Positions 5,924 through 54,576 of a stretch of DNA of 64,000 nucleotides are shown here, piece after piece. Position 1 is the first letter of the stretch, and every line of letters begins with the position of its first letter. A model generated the notes under the pieces. It was given only the letters and a program-made list of their open reading frames with translations, had not been told where the DNA came from and ran no database searches. The position numbers and the translations under genes are program-made. The stretch is from Clostridia bacterium (GTDB lineage Bacteria; Bacillota; Clostridia; DUPQ01), in NCBI GenBank assembly GCA_041678685.1, contig JBAYNV010000001.1, forward strand, positions 4,498 through 68,497. The letters run 5' to 3'.

Positions 5924-7316
5924 TGTATACCGCCTTTCTCAGATCCATAAATCTATCGTATATATCCTCATACGCTGCCTTTGCAGGCAGATATATTTCA
6001 TCTGTTTTTACCAGCAGGCTGCATGCTTCTCTGACGGAATCGAATGCTCCTATGCCGACTCCGGCCAGTATGGCCGAACCAAGGCATGCCGTTTCCCTGT
6101 CTTTCAGGGTCACGATCTTACAGCCGGTGATATCTGCCTTTATCTGGCACCATAATGCGCTGTTTGCCGCTCCGCCCATGGAACGTATTTCACTTACATC
6201 CGTTCCCATATCGATAAGCGAGCTCTTAAGCGTGCATGCAATGGCTTCCATTATGCTTCTTGCAAAATACCCTTTGGTATGACTTAAGCTGATCCCGTGA
6301 AACATACCTCTGGCGTCCGGATCATACGGCGCTATTGAACCGCACAGATAAGGAAGCATGGTGAGCCCGTCACATCCGGCCGGGACTCTGCAGGCCAGTT
6401 CATCCAGTTCCTTATAGCTCATACCCCCGCAGAAATTGTCTTTGTACCATTTTAGTACCATTCCCGCTGTTGCGGTCCATGAAAGAAGGCAGTATCTGCC
6501 GTCGTAGTTATAGTGGCAGGGTATTCTTTTCACCGGATCATAAGGCGGTACCATTTCTGACGGAGCGAATATAGACATCGCAGTACCGGTCATTTCGCTT
6601 ACCATACCATTTTCTACTATTCCCGCTCCTATAGCGCCTGCTATCTGATCGATCGCTCCTGTAACGACCGTTATGTTCCCTGTATTCCCTATGCATTCCC
6701 CACTGTCGTGAATCGCAGGAAGCATATCCGGCGTGATATTCAGATATTCGAGCATTTCCGTCCACCATCCGCCTTTATGTATATCAAAATAAAGGCTCGA
6801 TGACTGTAATGTCTTTTCTGTTATGAATTTACCTGTAAGTCTGAAAAGAAGATAATCCTCAAGCAGGAATATCTTCCTGACCTTCTTCCATATATCAGGT
6901 TCATTTTTCTTCATCCACAGTAACTTGCATGCGGGCCATGTGGCTGTCACTTCCGCCTGCCCCGTCGTTTCGTATATTTTCTGCCGGCCAAAGTCCTTCT
7001 GTATCTCACAGGCTTCCGCCACAGCCCTGTTGTCAAGCCATACTATAGCGTTGCACAGAGGCTTTCCTTTTTCGTCAGCCATTATCAAAGTCTCGCATTG
7101 CGTGTCAATTGCGATCGCTGATATGTCGTTGCTCCAAGCTGTTTCTTTTACAGCTATCAGGAACAGATCGAAATATTCATCCGCATCAAATTCAACGTGA
7201 TCGCCTTTACTGATCAGTTCATAATCCACATGAGCGGATATGATACACTGTCCGGTCTGGTCATATACAGCGGCTTTTATTGATGTCGTCCCGACATCAA
7301 CTCCAAGTAACTTCAA
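5916..7316 (-). CDS. FGGY-family carbohydrate kinase (xylulokinase-like)
   Basis: FGGY N-terminal LLGVDVGTTSIKAAVYD plus C-terminal motifs. I prefer the TTG start at 7316, which has GGAGGG 5 nt upstream. The ORF track gives a GTG at 7337, which has no SD and overlaps the upstream gene by 25 nt. Confidence 0.8.
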   Translation of the reverse strand: MKLLGVDVGTTSIKAAVYDQTGQCIISAHVDYELISKGDHVEFDADEYFDLFLIAVKETAWSNDISAIAIDTQCETLIMADEKGKPLCNAIVWLDNRAVAEACEIQKDFGRQKIYETTGQAEVTATWPACKLLWMKKNEPDIWKKVRKIFLLEDYLLFRLTGKFITEKTLQSSSLYFDIHKGGWWTEMLEYLNITPDMLPAIHDSGECIGNTGNITVVTGAIDQIAGAIGAGIVENGMVSEMTGTAMSIFAPSEMVPPYDPVKRIPCHYNYDGRYCLLSWTATAGMVLKWYKDNFCGGMSYKELDELACRVPAGCDGLTMLPYLCGSIAPYDPDARGMFHGISLSHTKGYFARSIMEAIACTLKSSLIDMGTDVSEIRSMGGAANSALWCQIKADITGCKIVTLKDRETACLGSAILAGVGIGAFDSVREACSLLVKTDEIYLPAKAAYEDIYDRFMDLRKAVYNG

Positions 7317-8815
7317 GTATTCCCTCCGATGTTCCACATCCGGTTTATCTCAAGAACAGTTTTTCTGACCAGTATCTCTCCGCCTTCGTGCCCTGTTATA
7401 CCGCTGGACACATAAGCGCTGTAATGGCTTCCCGCCTCGGCTTTTTCTGTAGGAAGATAAAGCCCGTTCCCGCAGGCCAGCTGTATTATGAATGTCTGCT
7501 TTGCCCTGCTTCTTGCCCTTATGATATTCCCATAGTCAAGGAACAGTTCAAAAGGATTTGTAGCAAACGCTATGTCTGAAAACCGCACGACATGCACCTC
7601 CACAGGGAAATACCCATGGTCCTTCTGATATCCGTATCTTGCGGCTGTTCCAGCATAAACATGCATCTGCGCATTATCAGCAAAATCAAACCCGGATCTT
7701 CCTGCCTTGCTGATATATCCGGTTATCTGATCCTTCGCGATTTCGTATTCAGATCCTGTCACGGTCCTTACGGGCAGGTCAAAGATCATCACTTTATGGA
7801 CAAGCGCCATATCATCACATATATGTGAAACAGCTTTTTCATAAACATCGGCGATCTCATCTGCTATGCGTTTTCCGACTTTCCATGTGCCGTTTATATC
7901 AAACATTGACGTATCGGCATTTCTTTCAGTATGGTTTTCCCTTGATATGTTCGGATCATCTATCGGCGTCTCCGGCCCGACCCATCTTATGAGATCACGG
8001 GGGCACTGGTCGCCCGCCGCAGAGCATAATCCCAGAACATACAGACTGCTATTGAAGTGCTCGCGAAGCAGTATCCTTACCTTTCCCCAATAATCGGAAG
8101 ATATGAAGCTTCTGTGCTCTACGACCTGGGCAGGACAAGCGATATTTGCAACAACGCCTGTCAGTTTCTTTTGCCCGTCGAAAATATACAGAAGCTCTAT
8201 TCCTGAATCATTTCCTCCTTCAAGGTTCATAAAATCCAAACTATCGGTATCTCCCCACATCCTCGCTGAGCCGTCTTTGTATACGGCTCTTCTGCACATG
8301 CCTACAGGCGCGCGTCCGAATCCATTGGCATGATATGCTTTCTTTCTTGCTTTCCATGCCTGGATTATAGCGGCCGAGATCCTCTCTGCCAGAAACAGCA
8401 AGGCTTCATGAGGGTCCAGCACATCATCTGATGATGCTTTTGCAGTATATTGACTGTCTTTTGGCAGAAATGAGGAAAGCACATCCAATGCCGAGCCGTA
8501 TGTATCGCTTTTTGTTTCATATACCATCGCGGTATGGACATGGGTCGCATTTATTATTATCTTATCAGTGTCCAACCCTATATCTTCTGATCTTACGCGA
8601 CCGCGCACCATTCCAAGAAGGCCTGTATCGATATATAAAAGATCGCATGAGCATATGACCAGCTGATCAGATCCTGATTCAACAGCCATCGCCGTAGCTG
8701 TAATGGGAGTCTCCACATATTCCGAGATCCTTTCAAAAAACTGCCCGTCAAGACTTACCTTCCTGTCCGGCGTTATACTCTCTTCCGCCCAGCCTATCAA
8801 CAGTGCGTCATGCAT
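7313..8815 (-). CDS. hypothetical cytoplasmic hydrolase with neutral/alkaline ceramidase-like N-terminal domain
   Basis: 500 aa. The N-terminus LIGWAEESITPD resembles the ceramidase N-domain motif (G-x-A-x-x-D-ITP). There is no signal peptide. GGGGGA lies 5 nt upstream of the start. The family assignment is tentative. Confidence 0.4.
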   Translation of the reverse strand: MHDALLIGWAEESITPDRKVSLDGQFFERISEYVETPITATAMAVESGSDQLVICSCDLLYIDTGLLGMVRGRVRSEDIGLDTDKIIINATHVHTAMVYETKSDTYGSALDVLSSFLPKDSQYTAKASSDDVLDPHEALLFLAERISAAIIQAWKARKKAYHANGFGRAPVGMCRRAVYKDGSARMWGDTDSLDFMNLEGGNDSGIELLYIFDGQKKLTGVVANIACPAQVVEHRSFISSDYWGKVRILLREHFNSSLYVLGLCSAAGDQCPRDLIRWVGPETPIDDPNISRENHTERNADTSMFDINGTWKVGKRIADEIADVYEKAVSHICDDMALVHKVMIFDLPVRTVTGSEYEIAKDQITGYISKAGRSGFDFADNAQMHVYAGTAARYGYQKDHGYFPVEVHVVRFSDIAFATNPFELFLDYGNIIRARSRAKQTFIIQLACGNGLYLPTEKAEAGSHYSAYVSSGITGHEGGEILVRKTVLEINRMWNIGGNT

Positions 8816-9720: not shown

Positions 9721-9798
9721 TGGTGAGACATCGGAGACTCGAACTCCGGACACCTTGATTAAAAGTCAAGTGCTCTACCACCTGAGCTAATGTCCCAC
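9721..9798 (-). tRNA. tRNA-Lys (anticodon TTT)
   Basis: Reverse complement GTGGGACATTAGCTCAGGTGGTAGAGCACTTGACTTTTAATCAAG...TCTCACCA. It has a cloverleaf with anticodon loop cTTTTaa and an encoded CCA. Confidence 0.85.
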
Positions 9799-9801
9799 AT
9801 T

Positions 9802-9876
9802 TGGCTGGGATGGCAGGATTTGAACCTACGAGTGACGGAGTCAAAGTCCGTTGCCTTACCGCTTGGCTACATCCCA
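9802..9876 (-). tRNA. tRNA-Gln (anticodon TTG)
   Basis: Reverse complement TGGGATGTAGCCAAGCGGTAAGGCAACGGACTTTGACTCCGTC...CATCCCAGCCA. The anticodon stem ACGGA/TCCGT has loop cTTTGac, and CCA is encoded. Confidence 0.85.
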
Positions 9877-9890
9877 CCGCACCTATCTAA

Positions 9891-9968
9891 TGGGGTGAAT
9901 AAAGGGATTCGAACCCTTGGCCTCTAGGGCCACAACCTAGCGCTCTAACCAGCTGAGCTATACCCACC
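9891..9968 (-). tRNA. tRNA-His (anticodon GTG) with G-1
   Basis: Reverse complement GGTGGGTATAGCTCAGCTGGTTAGAGCGCTAGGTTGTGGCCCTAG...TTCACCCCA. It has an extra 5' G typical of tRNA-His and anticodon loop tTGTGgc. Confidence 0.85.
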
Positions 9969-16118: not shown

Positions 16119-17459
16119 ATGGTGACGATAACAAGAATGGAACCTTTCGACAGCGGTATAACATTTGAATATACATGCGATGCTTTGGAAAAGCAGCTTC
16201 GTATGAGGATCGCGATGGTACGGCAGTCCTCTTCGAAGGTCATTGAGAAACATATAGACGCAAAAGACGGCATGGTGAACGTTGACGGGTTGGAAAATGG
16301 CAAGGACTATACGGTGTGTCTCACTTTAACCGATAAAATAGGCAGGATAGAAGTCCCATCCTGCACAAGGCTTTTCACTCCTTTTAAAAACAAGAAAAAT
16401 TTCAAGATCATCAACTATATCCACAAAGATGATTTTTATTTCTATCCTTCTGGAAGATCCACATGCTCCCCCTGCCTGCTGGTATTACCAAACGGTGATT
16501 ATTTATGTTCTCATGATGTGTTCTGGGGGCACGGTGCGCAGGATCTTTCATATATTTTCACATCAAAGGATTCCGGTCTGACATGGCATTATCTGTCTCA
16601 TATATCACCCTGCTTCTGGGGAAAATTATTTCTGATAGGCAGTGTCGTATACATGCTGGGCATGTCCACGGAATATGGAGACATAATGCTGCATAGATCC
16701 ATGGATTGCGGAGCCACATGGGATAAGACAGTTTGTCTGTTCAAAACCGACATAGTTGATGAAAGAGGTTTCCACCAGGCTCCGGTCCCGACAGTGATCA
16801 ACAATGGCAGGATATGGACCGCAGTGGAATACGGGACATGGAAGCATAAATTCAGCATACATGTGATTTCGTGCGATATAGGCAAGGATCTGATGGATCC
16901 GAAGAATTGGGCTATGACAGGAGATACATCAGTAAAAATGAATCTCATGGGACTCAGAGGATGCAAGGAAGATCCTGTAGCGATAGAAGGAAATGTCATC
17001 ACAGGGAATGATGGCCGCATGTATGATATGCTCCGATGCAATCTTGTCGATGACGGTATAGCTATCTTAAGCGAGCTTGATAAAAATGATCCTACCGCAC
17101 CGCTTAAAAACATAAGAGCGGTCGATCTTCCTCTAGGACACTGTAAATTTGTCATAAGAAACAGAAACAACAGATATTATGTTATGGGAAACCGTATAGC
17201 CACTCCTTATGGCAACAAACGTCAGACGATGAGCCTTTATGGATCAGATGATCTGATAAGCTGGACTTTTATAAAAGATCTCTGGGATATACGCTCTACT
17301 TCTGACAGAAAGAAAGCCGCTTTGCAGTATCCGGACTGGTGTTTTCAAAATGATGACATCATTGCCGTGATAAGAACTGCCATGGATAAGCCGTTTAATT
17401 TCCATAATGCCAACTGCATCACGTTCCACAGATACAGGAACGCGCTGGAAAGCAAATGA
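16119..17459 (+). CDS. BNR/Asp-box repeat glycosyl hydrolase (sialidase-like, GH33-type beta-propeller), cytoplasmic
   Basis: Asp-boxes SKDSGLTW and SMDCGATW, plus a degenerate SDDLISW. No signal peptide. The start is 1 nt after the lyase stop. Confidence 0.6.
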   Translation: MVTITRMEPFDSGITFEYTCDALEKQLRMRIAMVRQSSSKVIEKHIDAKDGMVNVDGLENGKDYTVCLTLTDKIGRIEVPSCTRLFTPFKNKKNFKIINYIHKDDFYFYPSGRSTCSPCLLVLPNGDYLCSHDVFWGHGAQDLSYIFTSKDSGLTWHYLSHISPCFWGKLFLIGSVVYMLGMSTEYGDIMLHRSMDCGATWDKTVCLFKTDIVDERGFHQAPVPTVINNGRIWTAVEYGTWKHKFSIHVISCDIGKDLMDPKNWAMTGDTSVKMNLMGLRGCKEDPVAIEGNVITGNDGRMYDMLRCNLVDDGIAILSELDKNDPTAPLKNIRAVDLPLGHCKFVIRNRNNRYYVMGNRIATPYGNKRQTMSLYGSDDLISWTFIKDLWDIRSTSDRKKAALQYPDWCFQNDDIIAVIRTAMDKPFNFHNANCITFHRYRNALESK

Positions 17460-43040: not shown

Positions 43041-43068
43041 ATATCGGAGCAAACATTGATTTCTTTAA
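43041..43068 (-). promoter_or_regulatory. sigma-28 (FliA/SigD)-type promoter for the cheA-...-cheD operon
   Basis: The minus strand reads TAAA gaaatcaatgtttgc tCCGATAT, which fits TAAA-N15-GCCGATAT. It lies about 70 nt upstream of the cheA ATG and downstream of the fliS terminator. Confidence 0.5.
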
Positions 43069-43212: not shown

Positions 43213-43605
43213 TCACACGGCCTTGCTTTTCAGTTTTCTGTTTGTTTCCGTCACTTCCATCCATAAACTGCGGAATTGCATCACAAAATCCAAAGCTACA
43301 TCAAGTTTTCCGATATCTTTTTTCATATTAGCCAAAGTAAGCTGATATATTACGAACTCATACATATCATCAAGCTGCTTGGATATGGGATAACCTTTAT
43401 CAAGTGAGGACCGCAGGTAGTAAAGTATGTCCTCGGCTTTCTGTATATAAGAGTTGGTTTTTTCCATATTCTTTTTATTCAGACAGCACTTGGCCAATTC
43501 AATATCACCTATGCATTTGTTGTACAGAAGCAATATCAACCCTTCAGGGGTAGACTGCAATATATTGTTATCCGCGTATTCCTTTAGAATATTTTCCTGT
43601 TTCAT
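43213..43605 (-). CDS. fliS: flagellin-specific export chaperone FliS
   Basis: A 130-aa four-helix FliS family protein (EGLILLLYNKCIGDIELAK). Its position after fliD supports the call. Confidence 0.85.
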   Translation of the reverse strand: MKQENILKEYADNNILQSTPEGLILLLYNKCIGDIELAKCCLNKKNMEKTNSYIQKAEDILYYLRSSLDKGYPISKQLDDMYEFVIYQLTLANMKKDIGKLDVALDFVMQFRSLWMEVTETNRKLKSKAV

Positions 43606-43606
43606 G

Positions 43607-45496
43607 TTACTGCTCCATCATTGACGTGACATAACTGCTTTGAGTATTCATTTTCTGTATCGCTATCTCCAGATCCGTGAACCGCGACCAGTACTGTTTT
43701 TCCTTGTCATCCATGTCATCATTCGCTTCTTCTAGTTTTGCCTTGATATCATTTATCCTCTTAGTCAGCATATTCGTATCGTCGGATGCATCATCGGTAA
43801 CACCCGCTTTTTCGATCAGAAATCCTTTATTACCGTTTTTATCTCTGGAAACCGTGATATATTTCTTAATAATATCGTTCACTCTCTGGGCAAATCCATT
43901 TTCATCGAACCGCTTTGCTGCATCTGTAGCGCTCAAATCTCGGGTATATTCCACAGTTGACTGTCTGGTGAACATATCCACTACTTCTTCAAATTTGCCT
44001 TCTATGGCACCTTTCAGAACTGTTTCGTCGATACTGATCCTGCCATTATTGGTATAGTCGGAAGTGTTTATCCCGATACTGCCGAAAGTCATATTCAGGT
44101 TTTCCACTGCGCTTGTAAAAGCTGTCCTAAATTCACTGAGCATATTGAACAGCAGGCTGTCGGATTTCAATATCCCCTCTTTTGCGGTAGCTTCCCATTC
44201 TGCGATCTGCTTTTCAGTCATATCACCCTTCTGCTCGTCGCTCAAAGGCTCGTAATCATAATCCCTTGTCTGCAGGACATGAGTCGTAAGCTCTGAAACA
44301 ACACTGTTATATTCATCAATAAACGACTTTATGGAATCATATATACCGTCCACATTATTTTCCACACCAAACTCTATGGCCTGCACCGTTTCTTTCTTCA
44401 GTGTGTATGTGATATTGTCAATCGTAAATGTATTTGAACTTCTTGTTATGATGCTGGTTTTGTCCTCATCATTAAGATAAAACATTGCATCCTGGCCATT
44501 CTTTGTTAAGCCGCCTGTAATGCCAAGGAGACTGTCTTCGCCAAAAAAGCTACCGGTCAGGTTCTCTATGTCTATATATGAATTACTTCCGGTTTTTGCA
44601 GACGTTACGGTCATTTTATCCGTTATGCTGTTGTATGTCATTTTAACTTTTGCCGCTGATTCATTTATAGTATTCATTATTGTTTCAATGCTGTCGCTGC
44701 CGGAAAAATTAAATTCTGTCCCGTTTATTTTGAATGACATATCCTCGTTAGATCCGAAATTCTCATACATGGAACCCTTCAGATTAAGAATGCTCATATC
44801 ACCGGACCGTAACCCCAGGTAATCCAGTTTGATGACCGATTCACTACTGTCAAGTATCTGAAAAGTACTATTATCTGCCATAAGCTGTATTTCATTGTTC
44901 AGGTCCAGACTGGCTGTTACTCTTCCGGATCCCAGTTCAGCATCCAGTTTAGCCTGCAGATCCGATATGAATACGGCTCTGTCGGTGTAATTCTGATCAA
45001 AACTGATTTCATACTGCTCTCCGTCGAGTCTGGCATAAAAAGACATACCGCTTATATCTATAGTGGGAAGCAAAGACAGATCATCACTTCCCGAAATACC
45101 GTTTTTAACGGCTGTGTTACTGGTGACATTTGATGCTTTTGCAGTCTGAAGTATTTCATTTATCGTATATGCACCTGCTGCCGCATCACCGTTGGCCATT
45201 GCTGTAACATATGCGTTTGAGACCATATCTACTGTCTTTAAATTGGTAGTGGAAAGTATATTTTGCGAATTATCGGAAAGATTGAACTGAGATTTTGTAA
45301 AATCCGATAATGTCTGTATCACACCTCTGTAAGCATCCTGCTGCCACGTCGCATAAGTCAGTTCCTGTTCGATCTTGATGACCTTCTGTCTTTCAGCTTT
45401 CATCAGGTTCTCGATCATATCCTCAGTATCAAGACCTGATGCCAGTCCTGAGATCCTGCTTGACGAATATTCTAAAGTCGATACTTCTTCTGACAT
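43607..45496 (-). CDS. fliD: flagellar filament capping protein FliD (HAP2)
   Basis: N-terminal SGLASGLDTEDMIENLMKAERQ and C-terminal FliD coiled-coil domains. 629 aa. Confidence 0.85.
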   Translation of the reverse strand: MSEEVSTLEYSSSRISGLASGLDTEDMIENLMKAERQKVIKIEQELTYATWQQDAYRGVIQTLSDFTKSQFNLSDNSQNILSTTNLKTVDMVSNAYVTAMANGDAAAGAYTINEILQTAKASNVTSNTAVKNGISGSDDLSLLPTIDISGMSFYARLDGEQYEISFDQNYTDRAVFISDLQAKLDAELGSGRVTASLDLNNEIQLMADNSTFQILDSSESVIKLDYLGLRSGDMSILNLKGSMYENFGSNEDMSFKINGTEFNFSGSDSIETIMNTINESAAKVKMTYNSITDKMTVTSAKTGSNSYIDIENLTGSFFGEDSLLGITGGLTKNGQDAMFYLNDEDKTSIITRSSNTFTIDNITYTLKKETVQAIEFGVENNVDGIYDSIKSFIDEYNSVVSELTTHVLQTRDYDYEPLSDEQKGDMTEKQIAEWEATAKEGILKSDSLLFNMLSEFRTAFTSAVENLNMTFGSIGINTSDYTNNGRISIDETVLKGAIEGKFEEVVDMFTRQSTVEYTRDLSATDAAKRFDENGFAQRVNDIIKKYITVSRDKNGNKGFLIEKAGVTDDASDDTNMLTKRINDIKAKLEEANDDMDDKEKQYWSRFTDLEIAIQKMNTQSSYVTSMMEQ

Positions 45497-45509
45497 ATTA
45501 TCACCTCGA

Positions 45510-45890
45510 TTAGACTTCCCTGTTTGCTATAAGACCGAATTTTTCTGATACTGCTACGGACAGATCTATAAGCTTTGTTGACGGGATCTCTTTTATTATC
45601 TCATTCGTACGGATATCTATAACCCGGAAGATCACGGAATTAGTTTCCTTATAGATACTGTACTCCACGCGCTTTTCATCTTTTATCAGCAGATTATTAA
45701 GTTCTTCAACCTGTTTGTCAAGCTGTATCTTGTTATCGCATGTCTGGATATCTTCTTCCGGCTCGCTATCTGATATCCCGTTAATATTATCCTTTGTCTG
45801 CTTGTCTGCCGGCGGTTCTTTCACTGCCTGGCTTTCGACTGATACTGCTGCTGTAACGCCGGTTATTGAATCAATGTATGAATCATTCAT
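45510..45890 (-). CDS. flaG: flagellar protein FlaG
   Basis: A C-terminal FlaG domain (VEYSIYKETNSVIFRVIDIRTNEIIKEIPS). I prefer the start at MNDSY (AGGTG SD) over the track start at 45926. Confidence 0.7.
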   Translation of the reverse strand: MNDSYIDSITGVTAAVSVESQAVKEPPADKQTKDNINGISDSEPEEDIQTCDNKIQLDKQVEELNNLLIKDEKRVEYSIYKETNSVIFRVIDIRTNEIIKEIPSTKLIDLSVAVSEKFGLIANREV

Positions 45891-45931
45891 ATTACACCTC
45901 TGATTTCCTCCATATCGATGTATCAACAGTT

Positions 45932-45967
45932 AAAAATACCCGCCGTTTTTAAGCGGCGGGTTTTTTA
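45932..45967. terminator. rho-independent terminator after the flagellin gene (bidirectional hairpin)
   Basis: aaaaat ACCCGCCG tttttaag CGGCGGGT ttttt: an 8-bp GC-rich stem. It is immediately 3' of the flagellin stop on the minus strand. Confidence 0.65.
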
Positions 45968-45976
45968 GTGATCTGA

Positions 45977-47164
45977 TCAGCTGTTAAGCAGCTGTAATAC
46001 GTTCTGAGGCTGCGCATTCGCCTGAGCTAACATGGATTGTGCTGCCTGGCCTAACACGTTCATCTTTGTATATTCCATCATTTCAGATGCCATATCTACA
46101 TCTCTGATACGTGATTCAGCTGCGGTCATGTTCTCGGAAGCTGTTTCAAGGTTCGTGATCGTATACTCAAGTCTGTTGGTATATGAACCAAGATTTGACC
46201 TCTGTGTGGAGACAGCGCTTATAGCATTATCGATTGAAGTAAGAGACGCTGATGCGGAAGCACCGGTCGATACATCCAATCCCTGAAGTGAACCATTCTG
46301 TAATGCTTTTATAGATACAGTCGTTACCATATCCGCTTCGAGGTCTGCTCCGGAAGTTATAGCGATCGATTCTCCCGATGCTATAATGTCTGCAAAATCA
46401 CTGTGAGACAGAGTAAAATCGCTTCCAGCTCCGACAGCATCAGCCGTTACATCTGCTGATATGCCGTTTACTGTTATGCGGGCTGTCCCGGCGGTAGTTG
46501 CATTACCTACTGTAAGAACGTCAAATGTGATTTCCAGACTCTGAAGATTTGATGTATAGTTGCTTACATCAACAGCTCCGCCATCGGTATGGAAGGTTCC
46601 TGCCACATCTGTGTATTCTGCTGCTTCAAGAGTCGGAACTTCGCTACCTATACCAACACCTATTGTCACAGCATCCATTTTTGTAAGGGAAACTGTCAGT
46701 GTCTGGCCTGCATCTGCGCCGATCTGGAGATTGCCGGAAAACACGTGGTCATTTGACATAAGGGCTTCACCGTTGAACTTTGTCGTGTCAGCGATCCTTG
46801 TGATTTCCTGAGCTAACTGATCCATTTCGGCCTGTATTGTGGATCTGTCGCTTGCTGTTGCGGTATCGTTGCCTGCCTGTACAGCCAGTTCACGCATTCT
46901 TTGAAGTATCGATGTCGTCTCATTCAAAGCACCTTCTGCTGTCTGTATAAGGGAAATACCGTCCTGAGCATTTCTGTTTGCCTGATCCAATCCGTTTATC
47001 TGCGCTCTCATTTTTTCTGAAATCGCCATTCCTGCGGGATCGTCACCGGCCTGATTGATTCTAAGACCTGATGAAAGTTTTTCTAGTGAGCTGTTAGCAG
47101 CCTCGTTGTTTTTTGATAACTGGTTATATGTATTTAACGCAGCTATGTTGTGGTTAATTCTCAT
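45977..47164 (-). CDS. fliC: flagellin (FliC/Hag)
   Basis: A conserved N-terminal D0/D1 (MRINHNIAALNTYNQL...LSSGLRINQAGDDPAGMAISEKMRAQINGLDQA) and a C-terminal (QAAQSMLAQANAQPQNVLQLL). The central domain is variable. Confidence 0.95.
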   Translation of the reverse strand: MRINHNIAALNTYNQLSKNNEAANSSLEKLSSGLRINQAGDDPAGMAISEKMRAQINGLDQANRNAQDGISLIQTAEGALNETTSILQRMRELAVQAGNDTATASDRSTIQAEMDQLAQEITRIADTTKFNGEALMSNDHVFSGNLQIGADAGQTLTVSLTKMDAVTIGVGIGSEVPTLEAAEYTDVAGTFHTDGGAVDVSNYTSNLQSLEITFDVLTVGNATTAGTARITVNGISADVTADAVGAGSDFTLSHSDFADIIASGESIAITSGADLEADMVTTVSIKALQNGSLQGLDVSTGASASASLTSIDNAISAVSTQRSNLGSYTNRLEYTITNLETASENMTAAESRIRDVDMASEMMEYTKMNVLGQAAQSMLAQANAQPQNVLQLLNS

Positions 47165-47244
47165 GTAATCCTCCTTGATTTTTTATCGGGAATCCTTTCC
47201 CTATTTTTTTGTGCCAGTATACCGGCCAGTATCTTCACAACTAA

Positions 47245-47272
47245 TTAATCGGATCAAATCATGATTACTTTA
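47245..47272 (-). promoter_or_regulatory. candidate sigma-28-type promoter for flagellin (TAAAGT...N...CCGATTAA)
   Basis: The minus strand reads TAAAgtaatcatgatttga tCCGATTAA, about 80 nt upstream of the flagellin ATG. The -10 matches 6 of 8 positions. The leader contains several GGA motifs, one overlapping the SD. Confidence 0.4.
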
Positions 47273-47325
47273 ATTTTTTTTATATTTTTTTTATTATTGT
47301 TTCGAATATGGATCCGTTACAGGGA

Positions 47326-48402
47326 TCAGCCGTCTACTTCCTTATTGATAACGATATTAAGATAATCAGTGTTTACTTTCAGATCGACATCGTATGGGGC
47401 GACCCTGTTGCCTTCTTCTTCGAAAACCCTTATCACAGGCCGCAGCGGAAGCCCTTTATTATTATTTACGACTATCGCCTGCGCTCCGTTGCTCAACTCT
47501 ATTATCGTACCTGGATTGAAGGGCGTGATGTTTTCTATAAATACCCTGGTGATCTCCGGGTCAAACATGCTTCCGCTGTTTCCCATTATATATTCAAAGG
47601 CTTCAGACTGGCTCCATGCCTTACGGTATGGCCTGTTTGAAGTCAGCGCTTCATACACATCGCAGATACACAGAGCTTTCCCGTATTTACTGATACCGGT
47701 ATCCGCTATCCCGAAGGGATATCCTTTTCCGTTATGATACTCATGATGCATCATAACACCCATCCTGGCCTGAGTGGAAAGGCAGCCCTGTTCCACAAGA
47801 TAATCATATCCTTTGAGCGGATGCTGCTTGACGAGTTCATATTCAGCACTGCTTAATTTACCCGGTTTATTCAGTATCGTCGAAGGTATGAAAAGCTTGC
47901 CTATGTCATGCATAAGCGCGCTTTTGAACAGATCGATCAGTATCGATTTGCTCATCATGGATTTCTTTCCCACGATCGCTGCGATCAAAGCAACATTCAC
48001 ACAGTGGGTATATGTAAAATCATCATGGCACTTCATGTACATGATGTTATATACTGCATTTTCGTTTATGACTATATCTGATATTATATTATCCGTCAGC
48101 TGATCGATTTCTTTCCAGCTGTTCAGTATGCCTTTATTATTGTTTTTAATGGATGTATACAGATCCTTCACCCTGTTGATGGCTTCGACCCGTATCCTCG
48201 GATTAATCGTTTCACTGACCTCGATCCCTTCGGATATCCCATCCTCTATCAGTATTGAAAGATATCCCAGTGTTTCAAGCTGCTGTATGTATTTTGAAGT
48301 TAGTCTGGTATTTCTTGTAAGATAAATTTCTCCGTACTTACCATAGACATCCTTACCTACTATCATGTCCTCCTTTAAAAAAGTAGTCGGAACACACCTC
48401 AT
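47326..48402 (-). CDS. HD-GYP domain protein (putative c-di-GMP phosphodiesterase)
   Basis: HD motif (LMHDIGKLF) and GYP motif (HHEYHNGKGYPFG). There is an N-terminal uncharacterised domain of about 130 aa. The start overlaps the csrA stop by 4 nt. Confidence 0.85.
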   Translation of the reverse strand: MRCVPTTFLKEDMIVGKDVYGKYGEIYLTRNTRLTSKYIQQLETLGYLSILIEDGISEGIEVSETINPRIRVEAINRVKDLYTSIKNNNKGILNSWKEIDQLTDNIISDIVINENAVYNIMYMKCHDDFTYTHCVNVALIAAIVGKKSMMSKSILIDLFKSALMHDIGKLFIPSTILNKPGKLSSAEYELVKQHPLKGYDYLVEQGCLSTQARMGVMMHHEYHNGKGYPFGIADTGISKYGKALCICDVYEALTSNRPYRKAWSQSEAFEYIMGNSGSMFDPEITRVFIENITPFNPGTIIELSNGAQAIVVNNNKGLPLRPVIRVFEEEGNRVAPYDVDLKVNTDYLNIVINKEVDG

Positions 48403-48641
48403 TTCTCTATTTCCTTATTCAAAAATATCCCTATCTTTTCTATAGACTGATCATCATTTTTTGACGATGCATGAATGTTTTCAGCGGTGACTTCATCAAC
48501 TATTTCTTTTCTCAAGACTCTAATGCTTTTTTTTGCATTGACTCCAAGCTTGACTTTACCGTTTTGCGATTCTATGACGGTGATCTCGATATCGTCGCCG
48601 ATCAATATGGATTCTCCAGATTTTCTTGATATAACCAACAT
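48399..48641 (-). CDS. csrA: carbon storage regulator CsrA
   Basis: MLVISRKSGESILIGDDIEITVIESQNGKVKLGVNA is the CsrA signature. A C-terminal extension is present, as in flagellar CsrA of Firmicutes. Confidence 0.9.
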   Translation of the reverse strand: MLVISRKSGESILIGDDIEITVIESQNGKVKLGVNAKKSIRVLRKEIVDEVTAENIHASSKNDDQSIEKIGIFLNKEIEK

Positions 48642-48653
48642 TTCTTTAATCCC

Positions 48654-49052
48654 CTAGCAACCAAGTATCCTGTGCCTTATACTGTATCTGTCATCTTCTA
48701 GGATCAGTTGTATTGCGTTTCCATTCTCTATATTGATTATTATAGGACTTCTTAAGTTAATTGTCATCATTTTAATATCATTTGGAATAACAACGATCCC
48801 ATAGATCCGCATATCAGCAGGATCTTTTAATTCGAGCGATTTCATTTCCTTATCATCAAGAACAGGATCATATGATCTGTCGATCATTTTAGGATCCAGG
48901 AGTATAAAGCAAACGTTTCCGTCAGATGCCTTTAAAAATCTGAAGGGATTATCTGCGCTTTCTGATGCTTTTGTCAGCGTATATTCCTTTATGTTCTCAA
49001 ATCCATATATTTCCCTTTTAAATGTGATATCCATTGGTTTATCCGTTTCCAT
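48654..49052 (-). CDS. fliW: flagellar assembly factor FliW
   Basis: A 132-aa FliW family protein. The fliW-csrA pair sits upstream of flagellin, as in Bacillus. Confidence 0.85.
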   Translation of the reverse strand: METDKPMDITFKREIYGFENIKEYTLTKASESADNPFRFLKASDGNVCFILLDPKMIDRSYDPVLDDKEMKSLELKDPADMRIYGIVVIPNDIKMMTINLRSPIIINIENGNAIQLILEDDRYSIRHRILGC

Positions 49053-49070
49053 TTCATCCCGCCTTTATAT

Positions 49071-50006
49071 TTACTCTATAAAATCAAGTAATGATAACTG
49101 TATTGCAGAAACCGAAGCCGATAATGACGCCTCATATGCCTGTTCAGCAAGCTTATAGTTCAGTATCGCTTTTTCGGTATCTATATCCTCTACGTCTGAT
49201 ATACGGTCATTTAATGTTGACTCCCGGCTTTTCAGCTGTGTTTTCACGGAATCGATCCTGTTGGCCGCTGCGCCTATTTTTGTAATATTTATAAGCACTT
49301 TATCATAATTATCTTCAAGCACTTTATTAAATGCAGTGTACGATTCATTATTGAACACATCAGCTCTTATGACATTAGTCAGAGCATCTATGTTATTCAG
49401 CATATTGTTTTCGCCTGTACCCATTATTTCCAGCGCTGAGATCCGTATATCCATACTCATGCCTTTACTGATGTTTACCGAGACTTTTTCCGACATCGCT
49501 GACGCTGTTTCTTCATCCGTCATTAACAATGTATCGATCCCGTTATATCCATATACTCCGCCATCAGCGGTCACCGGTTTGTTTTTTGTGTTGAACCCAC
49601 CAAAAATGTATACTCCTGAACTGCTGTAATTCAGGTCTGTTATTATCTGTTCTTTATACTGCTGGATCTCCTGACTCAGGGATTCTTTTGCTGATGAGGA
49701 TAAAGAAGAATTATTTGCATTTGTGCACAGTTCCATTATCTTCTGCATGCAGCTGTTTATGTCTTTTACTGCCGTTTCCATATCGCTTATCGCAGCTGTA
49801 GCGTTATCGATATTGCTGTAATATTTGGCTATATCTTTTTTATCGCTTTTAAGCCTGTTGAGACTGTTTGCAGATACGGGATCATCATAAGCGTTCTCAT
49901 ACTTTTTCCCCGTTGAAACGGAATATGAAGTATCCGAAAGCTTTTTATATGCCGTTTCGATATCTTTCATCGATCTTCTTGCCATCATACCGTTTGTTAT
50001 CCTCAT
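49071..50006 (-). CDS. flgL: flagellar hook-associated protein 3 FlgL
   Basis: A flagellin-like N-terminus (MRITNGMMARRSMKDIETAYKKLSDTSYSVSTGKK) and C-terminal helices. It follows flgK. Confidence 0.8.
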   Translation of the reverse strand: MRITNGMMARRSMKDIETAYKKLSDTSYSVSTGKKYENAYDDPVSANSLNRLKSDKKDIAKYYSNIDNATAAISDMETAVKDINSCMQKIMELCTNANNSSLSSSAKESLSQEIQQYKEQIITDLNYSSSGVYIFGGFNTKNKPVTADGGVYGYNGIDTLLMTDEETASAMSEKVSVNISKGMSMDIRISALEIMGTGENNMLNNIDALTNVIRADVFNNESYTAFNKVLEDNYDKVLINITKIGAAANRIDSVKTQLKSRESTLNDRISDVEDIDTEKAILNYKLAEQAYEASLSASVSAIQLSLLDFIE

Positions 50007-50016
50007 GATTCTACTC

Positions 50017-51477
50017 CTATATCATATTGATCAGTGTATCCAGCATCTCATCGATCACCTGCATAACATTTGCAGCTGCCTCATATGATTTCTGATACGT
50101 GGTCAGGTTTATGGTCTCTTCAGTAAGGCTAACTCCTGATACTGAGTCTCTCTGACTGCTTATATAGTCTGCTATTTCATCCTGGCTGGAAGCTCTTGCT
50201 TTGGCATATCCTGTCGTTATAGTCACCTTCGAAAACACAGACTCTATATGATCCTCCAGGTTACCTATACTGGCATCCCCGTACATTATGCCTGTAGCAT
50301 CCCTCAGTGCCACCAGCTTCATCAGATTCCTGTTATTTGACGTTCCTGCGGAGTCGTTCAAAGATACATCAGATGCCGCTATATTTGATGCGTTTTCATT
50401 TAAAGCATCTGATATCCTGATATTTGATGCTTTCAGGTTCTCACTGTTAAAAAAGTCTGCTCCGGATACTGAAAGATTTGAGCCGTATGGCAGAGTATAT
50501 CCTTCGCTGTTTATACTGTTGAACTGTTCAACTATGGAACCTGCAAGATCATCCAGCTGGCTTATGACATAATCAATCCCCATTTTATCCTGAGAGTTGC
50601 CGTCTCTGATATCTTGCATACCTTTCAGCTGTCCGCCTGTTAGCAATACTTTAGTACCTGTATCTTTCCAGTAAAGCTGATTGAATGTGCCTTCGACAGC
50701 GTCACTTTCCAGGTTGTTCTTCACTTCTATCTCATGGACAGTGTAATGGTCCACAAGGCAGTATCCGCCTGACATGACCTGAAATTCACCGTTGTCTCTT
50801 TCATTTACCGTCACACTCATAAGACCTGAAAGATCGTCAGCGATAAGGTTCCTCTGATCCCTTAATTCATTTGCTGTCGCGCCTGTCACTTCAAATTCAC
50901 AGATCAGTTTATTCAGTTCGACCAGCTGATATGCTTTATCGTTGATCTCATATGCAAGTGTCGCTACATCATCATTCAGTTCGGTCTTGTACTGCATCAG
51001 CGCATCTGCGGTTATGTTTAAATTTTCAGTGAAAAGTATCGCATTCTGTTTTACTTCTTCCCTGATAGTCATATTTTCAGTATTCGCAGCCAGGTTTTCT
51101 ATAGAATCAAAAAGATCTGTAAGCATATTGCTTATAGAATCATCTCTCCCGTTCCTCATCAGACTGTTTATGTATATATACCCTGAACTCTCAGTGGAAA
51201 GCTCTGCCTGTATACCCATTTCCTTACGGTACATGCTGTCATAATAATCATCACGTACCTGCTTTATCTGTGCAAGTTGCACTCCTCTTCCGATGTTTGT
51301 TGCACCTGAACTTGAAAACAGGGTCCTGGAATTATCACCTACCGCTTCAAGGATTATCTGCTGTCTTGTGTATCCTTCCGTGTTGGCATTGGCAATATTG
51401 TGGCCTGTGATGTCGATCGCTTTTTGATTTACATACAGGCTTTTTCTGACTATTTCAATACCGCTGAATGTGCTCAT
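50017..51477 (-). CDS. flgK: flagellar hook-associated protein 1 FlgK
   Basis: The N-terminal rod/hook motif (IDITGHNIANANTEGYTRQ) and a C-terminal FlgK domain. Confidence 0.85.
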   Translation of the reverse strand: MSTFSGIEIVRKSLYVNQKAIDITGHNIANANTEGYTRQQIILEAVGDNSRTLFSSSGATNIGRGVQLAQIKQVRDDYYDSMYRKEMGIQAELSTESSGYIYINSLMRNGRDDSISNMLTDLFDSIENLAANTENMTIREEVKQNAILFTENLNITADALMQYKTELNDDVATLAYEINDKAYQLVELNKLICEFEVTGATANELRDQRNLIADDLSGLMSVTVNERDNGEFQVMSGGYCLVDHYTVHEIEVKNNLESDAVEGTFNQLYWKDTGTKVLLTGGQLKGMQDIRDGNSQDKMGIDYVISQLDDLAGSIVEQFNSINSEGYTLPYGSNLSVSGADFFNSENLKASNIRISDALNENASNIAASDVSLNDSAGTSNNRNLMKLVALRDATGIMYGDASIGNLEDHIESVFSKVTITTGYAKARASSQDEIADYISSQRDSVSGVSLTEETINLTTYQKSYEAAANVMQVIDEMLDTLINMI

Positions 51478-51479
51478 GA

Positions 51480-51938
51480 TTATACCCTTTTATCTAACAG
51501 GACATTAGGCTCGTAATATCTTTCGCTCTTCTTCTCGATGATATCCAGAGCTGACCTGAGTTCTTCCAGCCTGGTCTCAACTATTTTCACATTGAGAGTT
51601 TTTAATTTTTCCTGTTCAACAAGATCGCTGTAAAAACGTTCTGTCAGCTTCTCAGCTTTTCTGATCTGATCAGGTTCCAGATATTTATGCATTATTCTTT
51701 TAGTGAACTTCTTTATCCCGTACTGATTTTTCAATATATTCAGTGCTCTCTGTTTTTTATTTTCAGCCAATGAAAACCTCATAAGCAATGCCTCTTCAAG
51801 TTTTATTATACTGTTGAGCATACTAATATCATTACTCTTAAGTATGTTTGCTTTTTCTTTTGAGACAGCATTGAATTGATCTATTATGTCGATCTGTTTT
51901 GAATACAAACTCATTACCTCTTCAAAAAGTTCTATCAT
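51480..51938 (-). CDS. flgN: FlgN-family flagellar chaperone (YvyG-like)
   Basis: A 152-aa helical protein at the yvyG/flgN position between flgM and flgK. GGAGG SD. Confidence 0.5.
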   Translation of the reverse strand: MIELFEEVMSLYSKQIDIIDQFNAVSKEKANILKSNDISMLNSIIKLEEALLMRFSLAENKKQRALNILKNQYGIKKFTKRIMHKYLEPDQIRKAEKLTERFYSDLVEQEKLKTLNVKIVETRLEELRSALDIIEKKSERYYEPNVLLDKRV

Positions 51939-52016: not shown

Positions 52017-52295
52017 CTACTTTTTTATTATCGAATCGATGATCTTTTCGGATAATGCCTTACTGTCGACCTTATAATCACCGCTTTTGATCCTGCTTTT
52101 TATGCTGCTTATCATATCAGCACGGTCGATATCTGCGTTTTTTGCCTTCTGGATGTACTTGTCGATGGACTTTGCCTGATCAGAGATACTTACTTCATCA
52201 CTGACATGCATATCCTGTCTGTATATCTGTCCTTTATCCGAGTTATTACTGACCTTATTGACTGTATCGTATGCATTTACTGGATTTATTTTCAT
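52017..52295 (-). CDS. flgM: anti-sigma-28 factor FlgM
   Basis: 92 aa. The C-terminal ...IKSRIKSGDYKVDSKALSEKIIDS matches the FlgM sigma-28 binding helices. Confidence 0.7.
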   Translation of the reverse strand: MKINPVNAYDTVNKVSNNSDKGQIYRQDMHVSDEVSISDQAKSIDKYIQKAKNADIDRADMISSIKSRIKSGDYKVDSKALSEKIIDSIIKK

Positions 52296-52310: not shown

Positions 52311-53060
52311 TTATTTACGTAATCTGTTAGCTATACCGCTGATCTCATCCATGACCTGAAGTACTTTTGAGTTCATCTGGTAGAGCCTCTGGGCCTGTAT
52401 GAGATCAGTCATCTCCACCGCCATATTCACATTCGACTGTTCCAAACTTCCCTGCCTTAATGATATATCGGCAACTTCTGTGTTTTCCTTTAGTCCCGTA
52501 CCGTTTTTATATAAACTTTTTCCAAAAGCTTCCAGCTCACCGGGGTTTTCAAAGGATGTGATATCCAGTGTGACCGTTCTGCCGCTGTTTTTAAAAGAAA
52601 TAACGCCGTCAGTATCGATCACCAAATCTCCATCTTCCCCGCTTACCTGTATCTTATCACCATTTGCATCTAAGAGGAAGTATCCTTCATCACTGGCAAG
52701 ATATAAATTATTCTCATACTCAGACAGGGAAAAACTTCCTCCTCTTGTATAAAACCTCTCATTTCCGTCAGACAGGGTCAAAAAACCGTCTTTATAAAAA
52801 GCAAGATCATAATCATCTCCGGTCTCCTTCAGATCCCCATATGTAAAATCCTTTGAATATCCGTTTGTGGTTATCCCGCTTCCCAGGGTATATTCTTTAG
52901 TTGACTCGGTATCATAAAGTGAATACATGAGATCACTGAAACTAACCGATGTTTTCTTATAACCGTTCGTGTTTATATTTGATATATTGCCTGAGATCAC
53001 ATCAAATACTTTTTCCTGGCATATCATGGAATTTGCGGCTATGTAGTAAGCGTTGTTCAT
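52311..53060 (-). CDS. flgG: flagellar basal-body rod protein FlgG
   Basis: The N-terminal rod motif (GNISNINTNGYKK) and a C-terminal (VEMTDLIQAQRLYQMNSKVLQV). Confidence 0.8.
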   Translation of the reverse strand: MNNAYYIAANSMICQEKVFDVISGNISNINTNGYKKTSVSFSDLMYSLYDTESTKEYTLGSGITTNGYSKDFTYGDLKETGDDYDLAFYKDGFLTLSDGNERFYTRGGSFSLSEYENNLYLASDEGYFLLDANGDKIQVSGEDGDLVIDTDGVISFKNSGRTVTLDITSFENPGELEAFGKSLYKNGTGLKENTEVADISLRQGSLEQSNVNMAVEMTDLIQAQRLYQMNSKVLQVMDEISGIANRLRK

Positions 53061-53072
53061 CTGTTATTCTCC

Positions 53073-53789
53073 TTAAAATGCGGCTATGGTATTTACTGCT
53101 TTCCCGTTCATCTCATCAAGGATCTGTATGACTGCCTGATTTGTTTCATATTTGTTGCTTATATCCATCATTTTTAAATATTCCTCAGTGAGGCTGACAT
53201 TTGATCCCTCGGTGTATCCCTGCTTTATCTCAGCCTGGCTTTCAATCGTAACGGCATTTTCACTTGCTGCATAATAATCAAACCCGATCTTTTTCAGTTC
53301 CGTATAATCTGCAAAATCGACTGCTTCTATCGTATCGGCATATATCCCGCCAACGGTCACGGTACCCGCTTTGGAGATCTCCACATCCTGATCGGCGGCA
53401 TATATCTTTCCCTGCGTCCCCATGATATATGCTCCATGCTGATCCACAAGATATCCGTCTGTATCGATATCAAAACTTCCGCCTCTTGAATAATACAGAT
53501 TGTCTTTATACATCACTTCAATGAAACCGTTCTTATCAAGAGCGATATCATTAATATCGCCTTCATACAATTCGCCCTGCGTAAAGTCTGTACAGATATT
53601 CAGATCGAACAGGTTTTCCTTTTCTGAATCATATTGTTCCTGTATAAAGTAATCGCTGAATGATCTTATGGTAAGAGTATCGGTCTTATACCTGTCTGTC
53701 GATGTATTTGCAATATTATTTGACACAACAGCAAGCTGGCTGTTCAGTGTAAGTAACGATCTTCCAAGTTGATCAAGGCCGATATCCAT
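53073..53789 (-). CDS. flgF: flagellar basal-body rod protein FlgF/FlgG family
   Basis: N-terminal VVSNNIANTSTDRYK and C-terminal rod heptads. It is a paralogue of the downstream flgG. Confidence 0.8.
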   Translation of the reverse strand: MDIGLDQLGRSLLTLNSQLAVVSNNIANTSTDRYKTDTLTIRSFSDYFIQEQYDSEKENLFDLNICTDFTQGELYEGDINDIALDKNGFIEVMYKDNLYYSRGGSFDIDTDGYLVDQHGAYIMGTQGKIYAADQDVEISKAGTVTVGGIYADTIEAVDFADYTELKKIGFDYYAASENAVTIESQAEIKQGYTEGSNVSLTEEYLKMMDISNKYETNQAVIQILDEMNGKAVNTIAAF

Positions 53790-53820: not shown

Positions 53821-53847
53821 ACATCGGCATTTTATCGGTTTACTTTA
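53821..53847 (-). promoter_or_regulatory. sigma-28-type promoter for flgF-flgG-flgM-... (TAAA-N15-GCCGATGT)
   Basis: The minus strand reads cTAAA gtaaaccgataaaat GCCGATGT aa. The spacer is exactly 15 nt and the -10 matches 7 of 8 positions. The -35 overlaps the fliA stop codon. It lies about 30 nt upstream of the flgF ATG, leaving room for the GGAGG SD. Confidence 0.55.
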
Positions 53848-54576
53848 GATATTATCTTTCAATTCTTCTTTTAATTTCGACAGGATCCCTGAAATTATCT
53901 GTGATATCCTTGATTCGCACAGATCCATGATCTGTGCGATCTCTTTATAAGTCAGCTCTTCAGTGTAATACAGATTCAGTATCGTTTTTTCTTTTTCACT
54001 CAGTCTGTCCACGTGGTATGCCAATGCCTCGATGAGCTGTGCTTTATCCAGGGTCTCTTCAGGATATTCCTCTTCCTTACGGCTTTTTATTATATCTCCG
54101 TTATCTTCTATATATGACTCGAAGGAGACCATGTCAGACAAGGCTTCTTCTTCCTGTATCCTTTTTACTTTATCGATGCTTATATCCAGTGCGGATGATA
54201 TTTCCTGTAAAGTCGGTTCTTTCCCATAACAGTTATGATACTTGTTGAGAAAATCATTCAGTTCTTTTGATTTTTTCCTTGTATCTCTGGACAGTATGTC
54301 TAACTTCCTCATATAATCCAGGATCTGCCCTTTGATCCTCAGACAGGCGTAAGACTCGAATTTCACATTCTTATTGGAATCGAATTTTTCTACGGCATCG
54401 ATAAGCCCGATAACGCCTTCGCTATACAGGTCATCTTCTTCGACCAGACCTATCCTGGTGCATGGAATTGTGTATATCACCCTTTTTACCAGATATGCGT
54501 ACTGTTCGACTATCACGTTCCTGTTAGCGACAGTTCTGCGATCCATGTATTCATTCCAAATTTTAGTTTTGTCCAT
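53845..54576 (-). CDS. fliA: flagellar sigma factor FliA/SigD (sigma-28)
   Basis: Region 2 (DLYSEGVIGLIDAVEKFD), region 3 and region 4 HTH (LTYKEIAQIMDLCESRISQI). Confidence 0.9.
   Translation of the reverse strand: MDKTKIWNEYMDRRTVANRNVIVEQYAYLVKRVIYTIPCTRIGLVEEDDLYSEGVIGLIDAVEKFDSNKNVKFESYACLRIKGQILDYMRKLDILSRDTRKKSKELNDFLNKYHNCYGKEPTLQEISSALDISIDKVKRIQEEEALSDMVSFESYIEDNGDIIKSRKEEEYPEETLDKAQLIEALAYHVDRLSEKEKTILNLYYTEELTYKEIAQIMDLCESRISQIISGILSKLKEELKDNI

Follow-up and report, generated by a model that had tools for sequence, protein, structure and literature searches.

A conserved HD-GYP gene inserted behind csrA in the fliW–csrA operon of an uncultured clostridial lineage

Position and conservation of the csrA–HD-GYP pair

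A 64,000-nucleotide (nt) stretch of a Clostridia bacterium genome (assembly GCA_041678685.1, contig JBAYNV010000001.1, positions 4,498 to 68,497; hereafter the window, with coordinates counted from its first letter) was analysed around a gene for a 358-amino-acid (aa) HD-GYP protein, a putative phosphodiesterase of cyclic di-GMP (c-di-GMP). The minus-strand order is flgF-flgG-flgM-flgN-flgK-flgL-fliW-csrA-HD-GYP, followed by a sigma-28-type promoter, a leader and the flagellin gene. A first-pass annotation made from the letters alone had placed a gene of this length between csrA and flagellin, and both its coordinates and its length were found to be correct from the open reading frames (ORFs) and Pfam matches. 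The genes at the centre of the locus are as follows.

48654-49052, minus strand: fliW, 132 aa, Pfam FliW 4e-33
48399-48641, minus strand: csrA, 80 aa, FliW-type with a C-terminal extension, Pfam CsrA 2e-21
47326-48402, minus strand: HD-GYP gene, 358 aa, Pfam HD_5 5e-24 and HD 1e-9
45977-47164, minus strand: flagellin gene, 395 aa, Pfam Flagellin_N 2e-48 and Flagellin_C 2e-28

The stop codon of csrA and the start codon of the HD-GYP gene share 4 nt (ATGA, 48402-48399), which confirms the overlap that had been proposed. In the public annotation, the identical protein (P0001, 346 aa) begins 12 codons later, leaving out 48367-48402 on the minus strand. The segment MRxVPxTFLKED encoded there is conserved in homologues and, together with the csrA overlap, supports the longer ORF; on these sequence grounds, the annotated start of P0001 is probably wrong.

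The genomic context of related proteins was evaluated by looking up exact proteins and by a single scan each of genomes and metagenomes, and the CsrA, FliW, FlgL and flagellin of the window were searched by tblastn against all fetched loci. The lineages with the linked gene are given below with the identity of their HD-GYP protein.

Window: 100%; csrA upstream with 4-nt overlap; flagellin directly downstream
L001 (contig JBAZFL010000004.1): 81%; csrA upstream with 4-nt overlap; flagellin directly downstream
L009/L010: 78%; csrA upstream with 4-nt overlap; flagellin directly downstream
L005/L006/L018: 66%; csrA upstream with 4-nt overlap; flagellin directly downstream
L017: 57%; contig begins inside the HD-GYP gene; flagellin directly downstream
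L100: 46%; csrA upstream with 3-nt gap; flagellin directly downstream
L007/L008: 44%; csrA upstream with 4-nt gap; flagellin directly downstream
L014: 44%; csrA upstream with 4-nt overlap; an AraC-family gene on the opposite strand downstream, not flagellin

The csrA gene was located immediately 5' of the HD-GYP gene in all seven lineages retaining upstream sequence (five with the 4-nt overlap, two with a gap of 3-4 nt), and flagellin immediately 3' of it in seven of eight. Moreover, flgM-flgN-flgK-flgL-fliW preceded csrA wherever the contig extended that far. L014 is informative because csrA and the HD-GYP gene stayed paired after flagellin had moved away. A neighbour-joining tree groups the linked proteins in one clade, within which identity falls to 60% for FlhA and to 37-40% for FlgL. 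Chance does not explain the linkage, because it was found in every testable clade member despite HD-GYP and FlhA identities as low as 44% and 60%, respectively. The concern that it might be peculiar to one strain was thus removed. Neither csrA, fliW nor flagellin was found within 4-5 kb at 89 other paralogue loci with identities of at most 42% (three of four genome loci, seven looked-up paralogue clusters and 79 of 80 metagenome loci). The simplest account is a single insertion that was thereafter passed on vertically. Conserved linkage combined with the divergence of FlhA indicates that the arrangement is the mark of a fairly deep clostridial lineage that is so far uncultured and occurs in digesters and fermenters. 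No cultured carrier was found, as the nearest named FlhA relatives (Caldicoprobacter, Caminicella and Lutispora) were only 50-52% identical and fell outside the linked clade.

The nearest outgroup of the linked clade is P0012, at 40% identity. Its gene (L098/L099, 3502-4653) adjoins a RepA_N replication-initiator gene on contigs of exactly 4,971 bp in several samples, and this contig is possibly a small plasmid with the HD-GYP gene on it. At another locus (L013, 5001-7585), genes for a ParA/MinD-like ATPase and a ComFB-family protein come after a paralogue of 39% identity; recent work in Bacillus subtilis has shown that ComFB is a receptor of c-di-GMP and an inhibitor of motility. A tandem pair of HD-GYP paralogues with the same three-domain architecture lies in a non-flagellar context at L012 (5001-7255).

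The same data bear on whether a common clostridial HD-GYP paralogue landed after csrA once and was then carried along without any flagellar role. The family is large (1750 proteins at E<=1e-10) and occurs in varied contexts, including large Clostridium plasmids and the RepA_N contig, and the window holds no local c-di-GMP effector, all of which would suit such a passenger. However, the overlapping or abutting stop and start codons were kept despite the divergence of FlhA and FlgL, and the pair remained intact in L014 although flagellin had moved. The gene is also under purifying selection: nonsynonymous divergence (dN) was 0.11-0.22 among close lineages with synonymous divergence (dS) saturated, and dN/dS was 0.035 for L001 versus L009, the single computable pair, because synonymous sites were saturated for most pairs. 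A passenger is hence unlikely, although it is the alternative that survives best beside a flagellar role for the enzyme.

The HD-GYP protein: domains and active site

The protein comprises three domains. An apparently DUF3391/Bd1817-like N-terminal domain (residues ~1-115) precedes the HD-GYP catalytic domain (~125-293), and a small SH3/Sm-like beta-barrel with a Sm/KOW/Tudor-like fold (~295-358) ends the chain. Pfam DUF3391, a domain of beta-strands and then two long helices, was not detected by sequence in the 358-aa protein. The N- and C-terminal domains are present in all paralogues, whatever their genomic context. A PilZ domain was considered as the identity of the C-terminal barrel and was rejected on the criteria of the RxxxR ... 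[D/N]xSxxG motifs and the PilZ barrel fold. The extra C-terminal barrel distinguishes the protein from the DUF3391-HD-GYP family of Bd1817, PA4108, VC2497 and Borrelia PdeB; furthermore, Bd1817 lacks the full GYP motif, whereas it is kept here.

The best sequence matches in the PDB were PmGH (4MCW, 1e-34), V-cGAP3 (second, 1e-26) and the HD-GYP domain of PA4781 (4R8Z); the first two are active enzymes. The active site was mapped via an HMMER alignment and a 17-sequence alignment, with residue roles taken from PMC4159591. The metal ligands of PmGH that are present, with their counterparts here, are the following.

H189: H133
H221: H165
D222: D166
H250: H194
H276: H219
H277: H220
D305: D248

These seven of the eight PmGH ligands are invariant across the 17 sequences, and so is the catalytic pair D183/K225 of PmGH (D127/K169 here). 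The first-pass annotation had allowed for a protein that lacks its metal-binding residues; this is not so, since the clade has kept its metal-binding and catalytic residues intact and without variation. The eighth ligand, E185 of PmGH, which binds the third metal, corresponds to F129 here and to Tyr in most homologues (motif DD[F/Y]TY; D-D-F-T-Y here, Y-T-Y in most homologues). The acidic third-metal ligand of the trinuclear (E/D-T-G) subgroup is therefore missing, and F129 places the protein in the Y/F subfamily with "Y-T-Y / F-T-F" clusters, which was predicted to be binuclear by Bellini et al. (PMC4159591) and in which PA4781 is also placed. In enzymes without the third-metal Glu, hydrolysis often ends at pGpG, although GMP is still the product of PA4781 and VCA0681 (Galperin and Chou). 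Judged by F129, the enzyme here may yield pGpG rather than GMP.

The signature HHEYHNGKGYP (residues 219-229) matches the motif HHExh[D/N]GxGYP (bioRxiv 2021.11.05.467447). In addition, K179-P180-G181 and R257-P-Y-R260 match the motifs KPG and RxY[K/R], which confer c-di-GMP specificity, whereas RxxQ and RxxN forms are associated with a shift to cGAMP (Galperin and Chou) and are not carried by the 358-aa protein. From these residues, the protein is apparently an active HD-GYP c-di-GMP phosphodiesterase. A different main substrate was also weighed, either pGpG, as for PA4781, or 3'3'-cGAMP, as for the V-cGAPs. The absence of the third-metal Glu in the Y/F subfamily, the rank of V-cGAP3 among the PDB matches and the variable products and substrates within the HD-GYP family (Galperin and Chou) point in that direction. 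Nevertheless, RPYR fits the c-di-GMP form of the specificity motif and not the cGAMP-associated ones, and both KPG and the GYP tyrosine are present. Another substrate is therefore improbable, a little more so than a passenger gene, and c-di-GMP is retained as the expected one.

Transcription of the operon and CsrA sites of the flagellin leader

The elements ahead of fliW on the minus strand are listed below. Gene names were mostly obtained from Pfam on the window ORFs, and those of flgK and flgL from precomputed Pfam matches of orthologues together with tblastn.

53845-54576, minus strand: FliA/SigD-like sigma factor gene between flhA and flgF, Pfam Sigma70 r2, r3 and r4
53823-53847, minus strand: sigma-28-type promoter of flgF, TAAAG-N15-GCCGATGT, 34 nt upstream of flgF
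53073-53789, minus strand: flgF
52311-53060, minus strand: flgG
52017-52295, minus strand: flgM (Pfam)
51480-51938, minus strand: flgN (Pfam)
50017-51477, minus strand: flgK (orthologue Pfam and tblastn)
49071-50006, minus strand: flgL (orthologue Pfam and tblastn)

The window was scanned for sigma-28 promoters with the pattern TAAA-N14-16-CCGAT. Four matches were obtained versus 2.1 expected, and three of them are on the minus strand, intergenic and just 5' of flgF, flagellin and cheA. They are good sigma-28 promoter candidates by their intergenic placement and the presence of a FliA-like sigma gene nearby. The genes from flgF to the HD-GYP gene are tightly spaced, and the flgM-to-csrA order is the same in orthologous loci. 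From flgK to the flagellin promoter, the coding strand showed no terminator-like site in a scan of 45400-51600, where the sole strong terminator was the one after flagellin. According to promoter placement, tight spacing and the lack of a terminator, the flgF promoter likely drives the whole flgF-flgG-flgM-flgN-flgK-flgL-fliW-csrA-HD-GYP operon, and the HD-GYP gene would be the last cistron of a sigma-28-dependent late operon. Sigma-70-like sites inside fliW (48767-48739) were considered as drivers of csrA and the HD-GYP gene and were set aside, as the 22 such sites found do not exceed chance (17.8 expected from shuffling).

The HD-GYP gene is separated from flagellin by 161 nt (47165-47325), in which the following elements were recognised.

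47246-47272, minus strand: sigma-28/sigma-D-type promoter of flagellin, TAAAG-N15-TCCGATTA (pattern match, 47272-47248)
47219-47232, minus strand: ATACTGGCCGGTAT, a conserved GC-rich palindrome (5' hairpin in the predicted fold) just after the -10 element, where the leader's 5' end is predicted
47188-47201, minus strand: predicted CsrA site 1, hairpin GGGAA-AGGA-UUCCC with a 5-bp stem and an AGGA loop, in both minimum-free-energy and centroid structures
47170-47176, minus strand: predicted CsrA site 2, the flagellin Shine-Dalgarno sequence AAGGAGG, read from the sequence and conserved in all lineages

The HD-GYP gene thus lies directly upstream of the flagellin promoter and leader, as had been claimed. 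The promoter element is conserved 72-92 nt 5' of the flagellin ATG in L001, L005, L009, L017 and L100. In the window, the -10 element TCCGATTA ends 81 nt 5' of the ATG, which gives a leader of ~75 nt, and folding of the leader predicts two hairpins. The GGCCGG core of the palindrome is invariant in every flagellin leader of the clade (variants ATACTGGCCGGTAT, ATACCGGCCGGTAT and TTCCGGCCGGAA, also in L009, L017, L100 and L007), and the palindrome might either stabilise the 5' end as a hairpin or serve a dimeric regulator as its operator.

Both GGA strings that the first-pass annotation had reported, with the second over the Shine-Dalgarno sequence, were recovered, one as AGGGAAAGGA within 47202-47193 and the other at 47176-47170. 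The GGA of site 1 is 21 nt upstream of the Shine-Dalgarno GGA and is predicted to lie in a hairpin loop. In orthologous leaders, the AGGA/AAGGAC loop is kept and its GGA is invariant, whereas the stem varies (GGGGA/UCCCC, GGGG/CCCC, GCUGAAAA/UUUUCAGC, GUUGAGA/UCUCGAC and GGGAAA/UUUCCC). Across seven leaders, 94% of cells were paired, three of five pairs showed double compensatory changes, and the register was better than all slid controls; an eighth leader, read by eye, fits the pattern. This covariation across lineages strengthens the suggestion that the leader is under CsrA control. The two-site layout matches BS1/BS2 of B. subtilis hag and that predicted for Clostridioides difficile fliC (PMC8523840). 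In L005 (6075-8740; also L006 and L018), two tandem flagellin genes each have a leader with a GGA-loop hairpin, and the spacer 5' of the first is full of A/T-rich short tandem repeats (AGTAAAAGTAATAAA...).

The proteins of the switch are consistent with this layout. CsrA scores above the NCBIfam CsrA equivalog cut-off, and its best PDB match is the Geobacillus CsrA of the FliW–CsrA complex 5dmb, with N55 conserved. FliW matches 5dmb_A best and has kept the Gln by which it contacts N55 of CsrA; the role of CsrA N55 and FliW Q124 has been described (bioRxiv 2020.07.02.184341). The locus thus combines adjacent fliW and csrA in a late operon, N55, the FliW Gln and a predicted two-site leader. Given the hag-like leader and the conserved N55 and Gln, the CsrA part is well supported and is an ordinary case of a known mechanism.

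A closer tie would make the HD-GYP protein an integral fourth component of the FliW–CsrA–flagellin checkpoint, either through CsrA-repressed translation, such that no enzyme is made until FliW has captured CsrA, or through direct contact with CsrA, FliW or flagellin, for instance via the SH3/Sm-like barrel. The tight start/stop coupling to csrA is kept in all seven lineages. A GGA-bearing Shine-Dalgarno sequence (AAGGAA/AGGGAA) is present 9-14 nt 5' of the HD-GYP ATG in most lineages, and four lineages have a second GGA or GGGA ~20 nt farther upstream. Moreover, Sm/KOW/Tudor-like folds often bind RNA or protein. However, any Firmicute Shine-Dalgarno sequence holds GGA, and the upstream GGA is a conserved Gly codon of csrA. 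No conserved structure presenting GGA was found at the junction, where the predicted folds differ among lineages. The occurrence of the N- and C-terminal domains in all paralogues indicates that they are not adaptations to CsrA, and the strict conservation of the catalytic residues argues for an enzymatic role. A fourth component is therefore quite improbable, and it ranks below a different substrate. More doubtful still is that flagellin export gates the synthesis of the enzyme (CsrA on the junction GGA region) or its activity (contact with CsrA or FliW), in which case hook-basal body completion would switch on c-di-GMP degradation and a direct post-transcriptional link would run from the assembly checkpoint to the second messenger.

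Downstream of flagellin, the minus strand carries the following elements.

45938-45961, minus strand: intrinsic terminator after flagellin (terminator scan)
45510-45926, minus strand: flaG
43607-45496, minus strand: fliD
43213-43605, minus strand: fliS
43043-43067, minus strand: sigma-28-type promoter of cheA, TAAAG-N15-TCCGATAT, after a clear terminator behind fliS

The operon cheA-cheW-MCP-MCP-cheW-cheR-cheB-cheC-cheD follows fliS, and flgB through cheY occupy the plus strand on the opposite side of the window. The flagellar and chemotaxis genes at 18674-59862 make up a complete set, arranged as two convergent blocks (flgB...cheY, plus strand; fliO...cheD, minus strand); together they form a single supercluster (~18.7-59.9 kb, ~41 kb) in which the HD-GYP gene is the sole gene without a canonical flagellar or chemotaxis role. 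The sigma-28 gene directly follows flhA, with no flhF/flhG between them. Elsewhere in the window, a three-tRNA cluster is found at 9724-9967 on the minus strand, and the ORFs at 7313-8815 and 16119-17459 near it had no significant Pfam match.

Proposed role in late flagellum assembly

The reading that we favour, and consider reasonably probable, is that the gene encodes an active, c-di-GMP-specific, binuclear HD-GYP phosphodiesterase, which is co-produced with CsrA from a late flagellar operon and keeps c-di-GMP low in cells completing or using their flagella. In one uncultured Clostridia lineage, the gene would have become the last cistron of the operon, transcribed from the sigma-28-type promoter upstream of flgF and translated in tight coupling with csrA across the 4-nt overlap or the gap of 3-4 nt. 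Because of late-operon transcription and the csrA coupling, the enzyme would be made only in cells finishing flagella. The lowered c-di-GMP would keep effectors encoded elsewhere, such as a PilZ brake, a riboswitch or a transcription factor, from blocking motor function or flagellar gene expression. Flagellin would be regulated separately and in the classical manner, with its own sigma-28 promoter, two predicted CsrA sites and relief by FliW through partner switching. The functional tie between c-di-GMP turnover and the partner switch is one that we infer from gene order.

Several observations weigh against this phosphodiesterase role. The main weakness is that the window contains no cyclase, PilZ protein or riboswitch: no GGDEF, EAL or PilZ motif was found in the 64 kb, and no c-di-GMP riboswitch was returned there by an Rfam search at the gathering threshold and at E<=1. 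The sigma-28 promoters are consensus matches whose excess over expectation is not significant alone. The third-metal Glu is replaced by Phe/Tyr, and such enzymes often stop at pGpG or are less active; in addition, GYL replaces GYP in one clade member of the 17-sequence alignment. Furthermore, every linked locus comes from a metagenome or a metagenome-assembled genome; GCA_964563155.1 and GCA_016938455.1 are two such genomes with the locus.

By analogy, the closest functional counterpart is PdeH/YhjH of Escherichia coli, a class-3 phosphodiesterase under FliA control, by which motile cells maintain a low level of c-di-GMP (PMC4238805). In E. coli and Salmonella, a c-di-GMP-degrading enzyme belongs to the late sigma-28 regulon, and a candidate sigma-28-type promoter heads the operon here. 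Nevertheless, PdeH is an EAL enzyme encoded by a stand-alone gene in Proteobacteria, whereas the clostridial enzyme is of the HD-GYP type and is encoded inside the fliW–csrA operon in coupling with csrA; the two are analogous, not homologous. The flgM-flgN-flgK-flgL-fliW-csrA/hag locus of B. subtilis shares the flgM-to-csrA order followed by flagellin, the FliW-type CsrA with N55, the contacting FliW Gln and the leader with a GGA-loop hairpin and a Shine-Dalgarno GGA, but has no gene between csrA and hag. The sole c-di-GMP phosphodiesterase of B. subtilis, also named PdeH, is encoded away from the motility locus. The c-di-GMP receptor gene comFB, however, is part of the comF operon, which lies directly upstream of the FlgM-encoding motility locus, so c-di-GMP components beside this operon are not unprecedented.

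The conserved insertion of an HD-GYP gene into the fliW–csrA operon is new, and no description of the csrA–HD-GYP arrangement was found in full-text literature searches. Already known are the enzyme type, as the protein is a regular family member, and the presence of a phosphodiesterase inside a flagellar regulon. The practical impact is limited, given the uncultured carriers, the expected logic and the fact that no new mechanism has been demonstrated. The FliW–CsrA–flagellin switch and the control of motility by c-di-GMP have been studied as separate circuits in Firmicutes. A conserved operon of CsrA and a phosphodiesterase suggests that late flagellum assembly in some Clostridia has low c-di-GMP built into it. 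This would be a concrete, testable case of convergent regulatory logic, since E. coli has a similar arrangement with the unrelated enzyme PdeH, and, for one protein of a very large, almost uncharacterised clostridial HD-GYP family, it suggests a possible physiological role.

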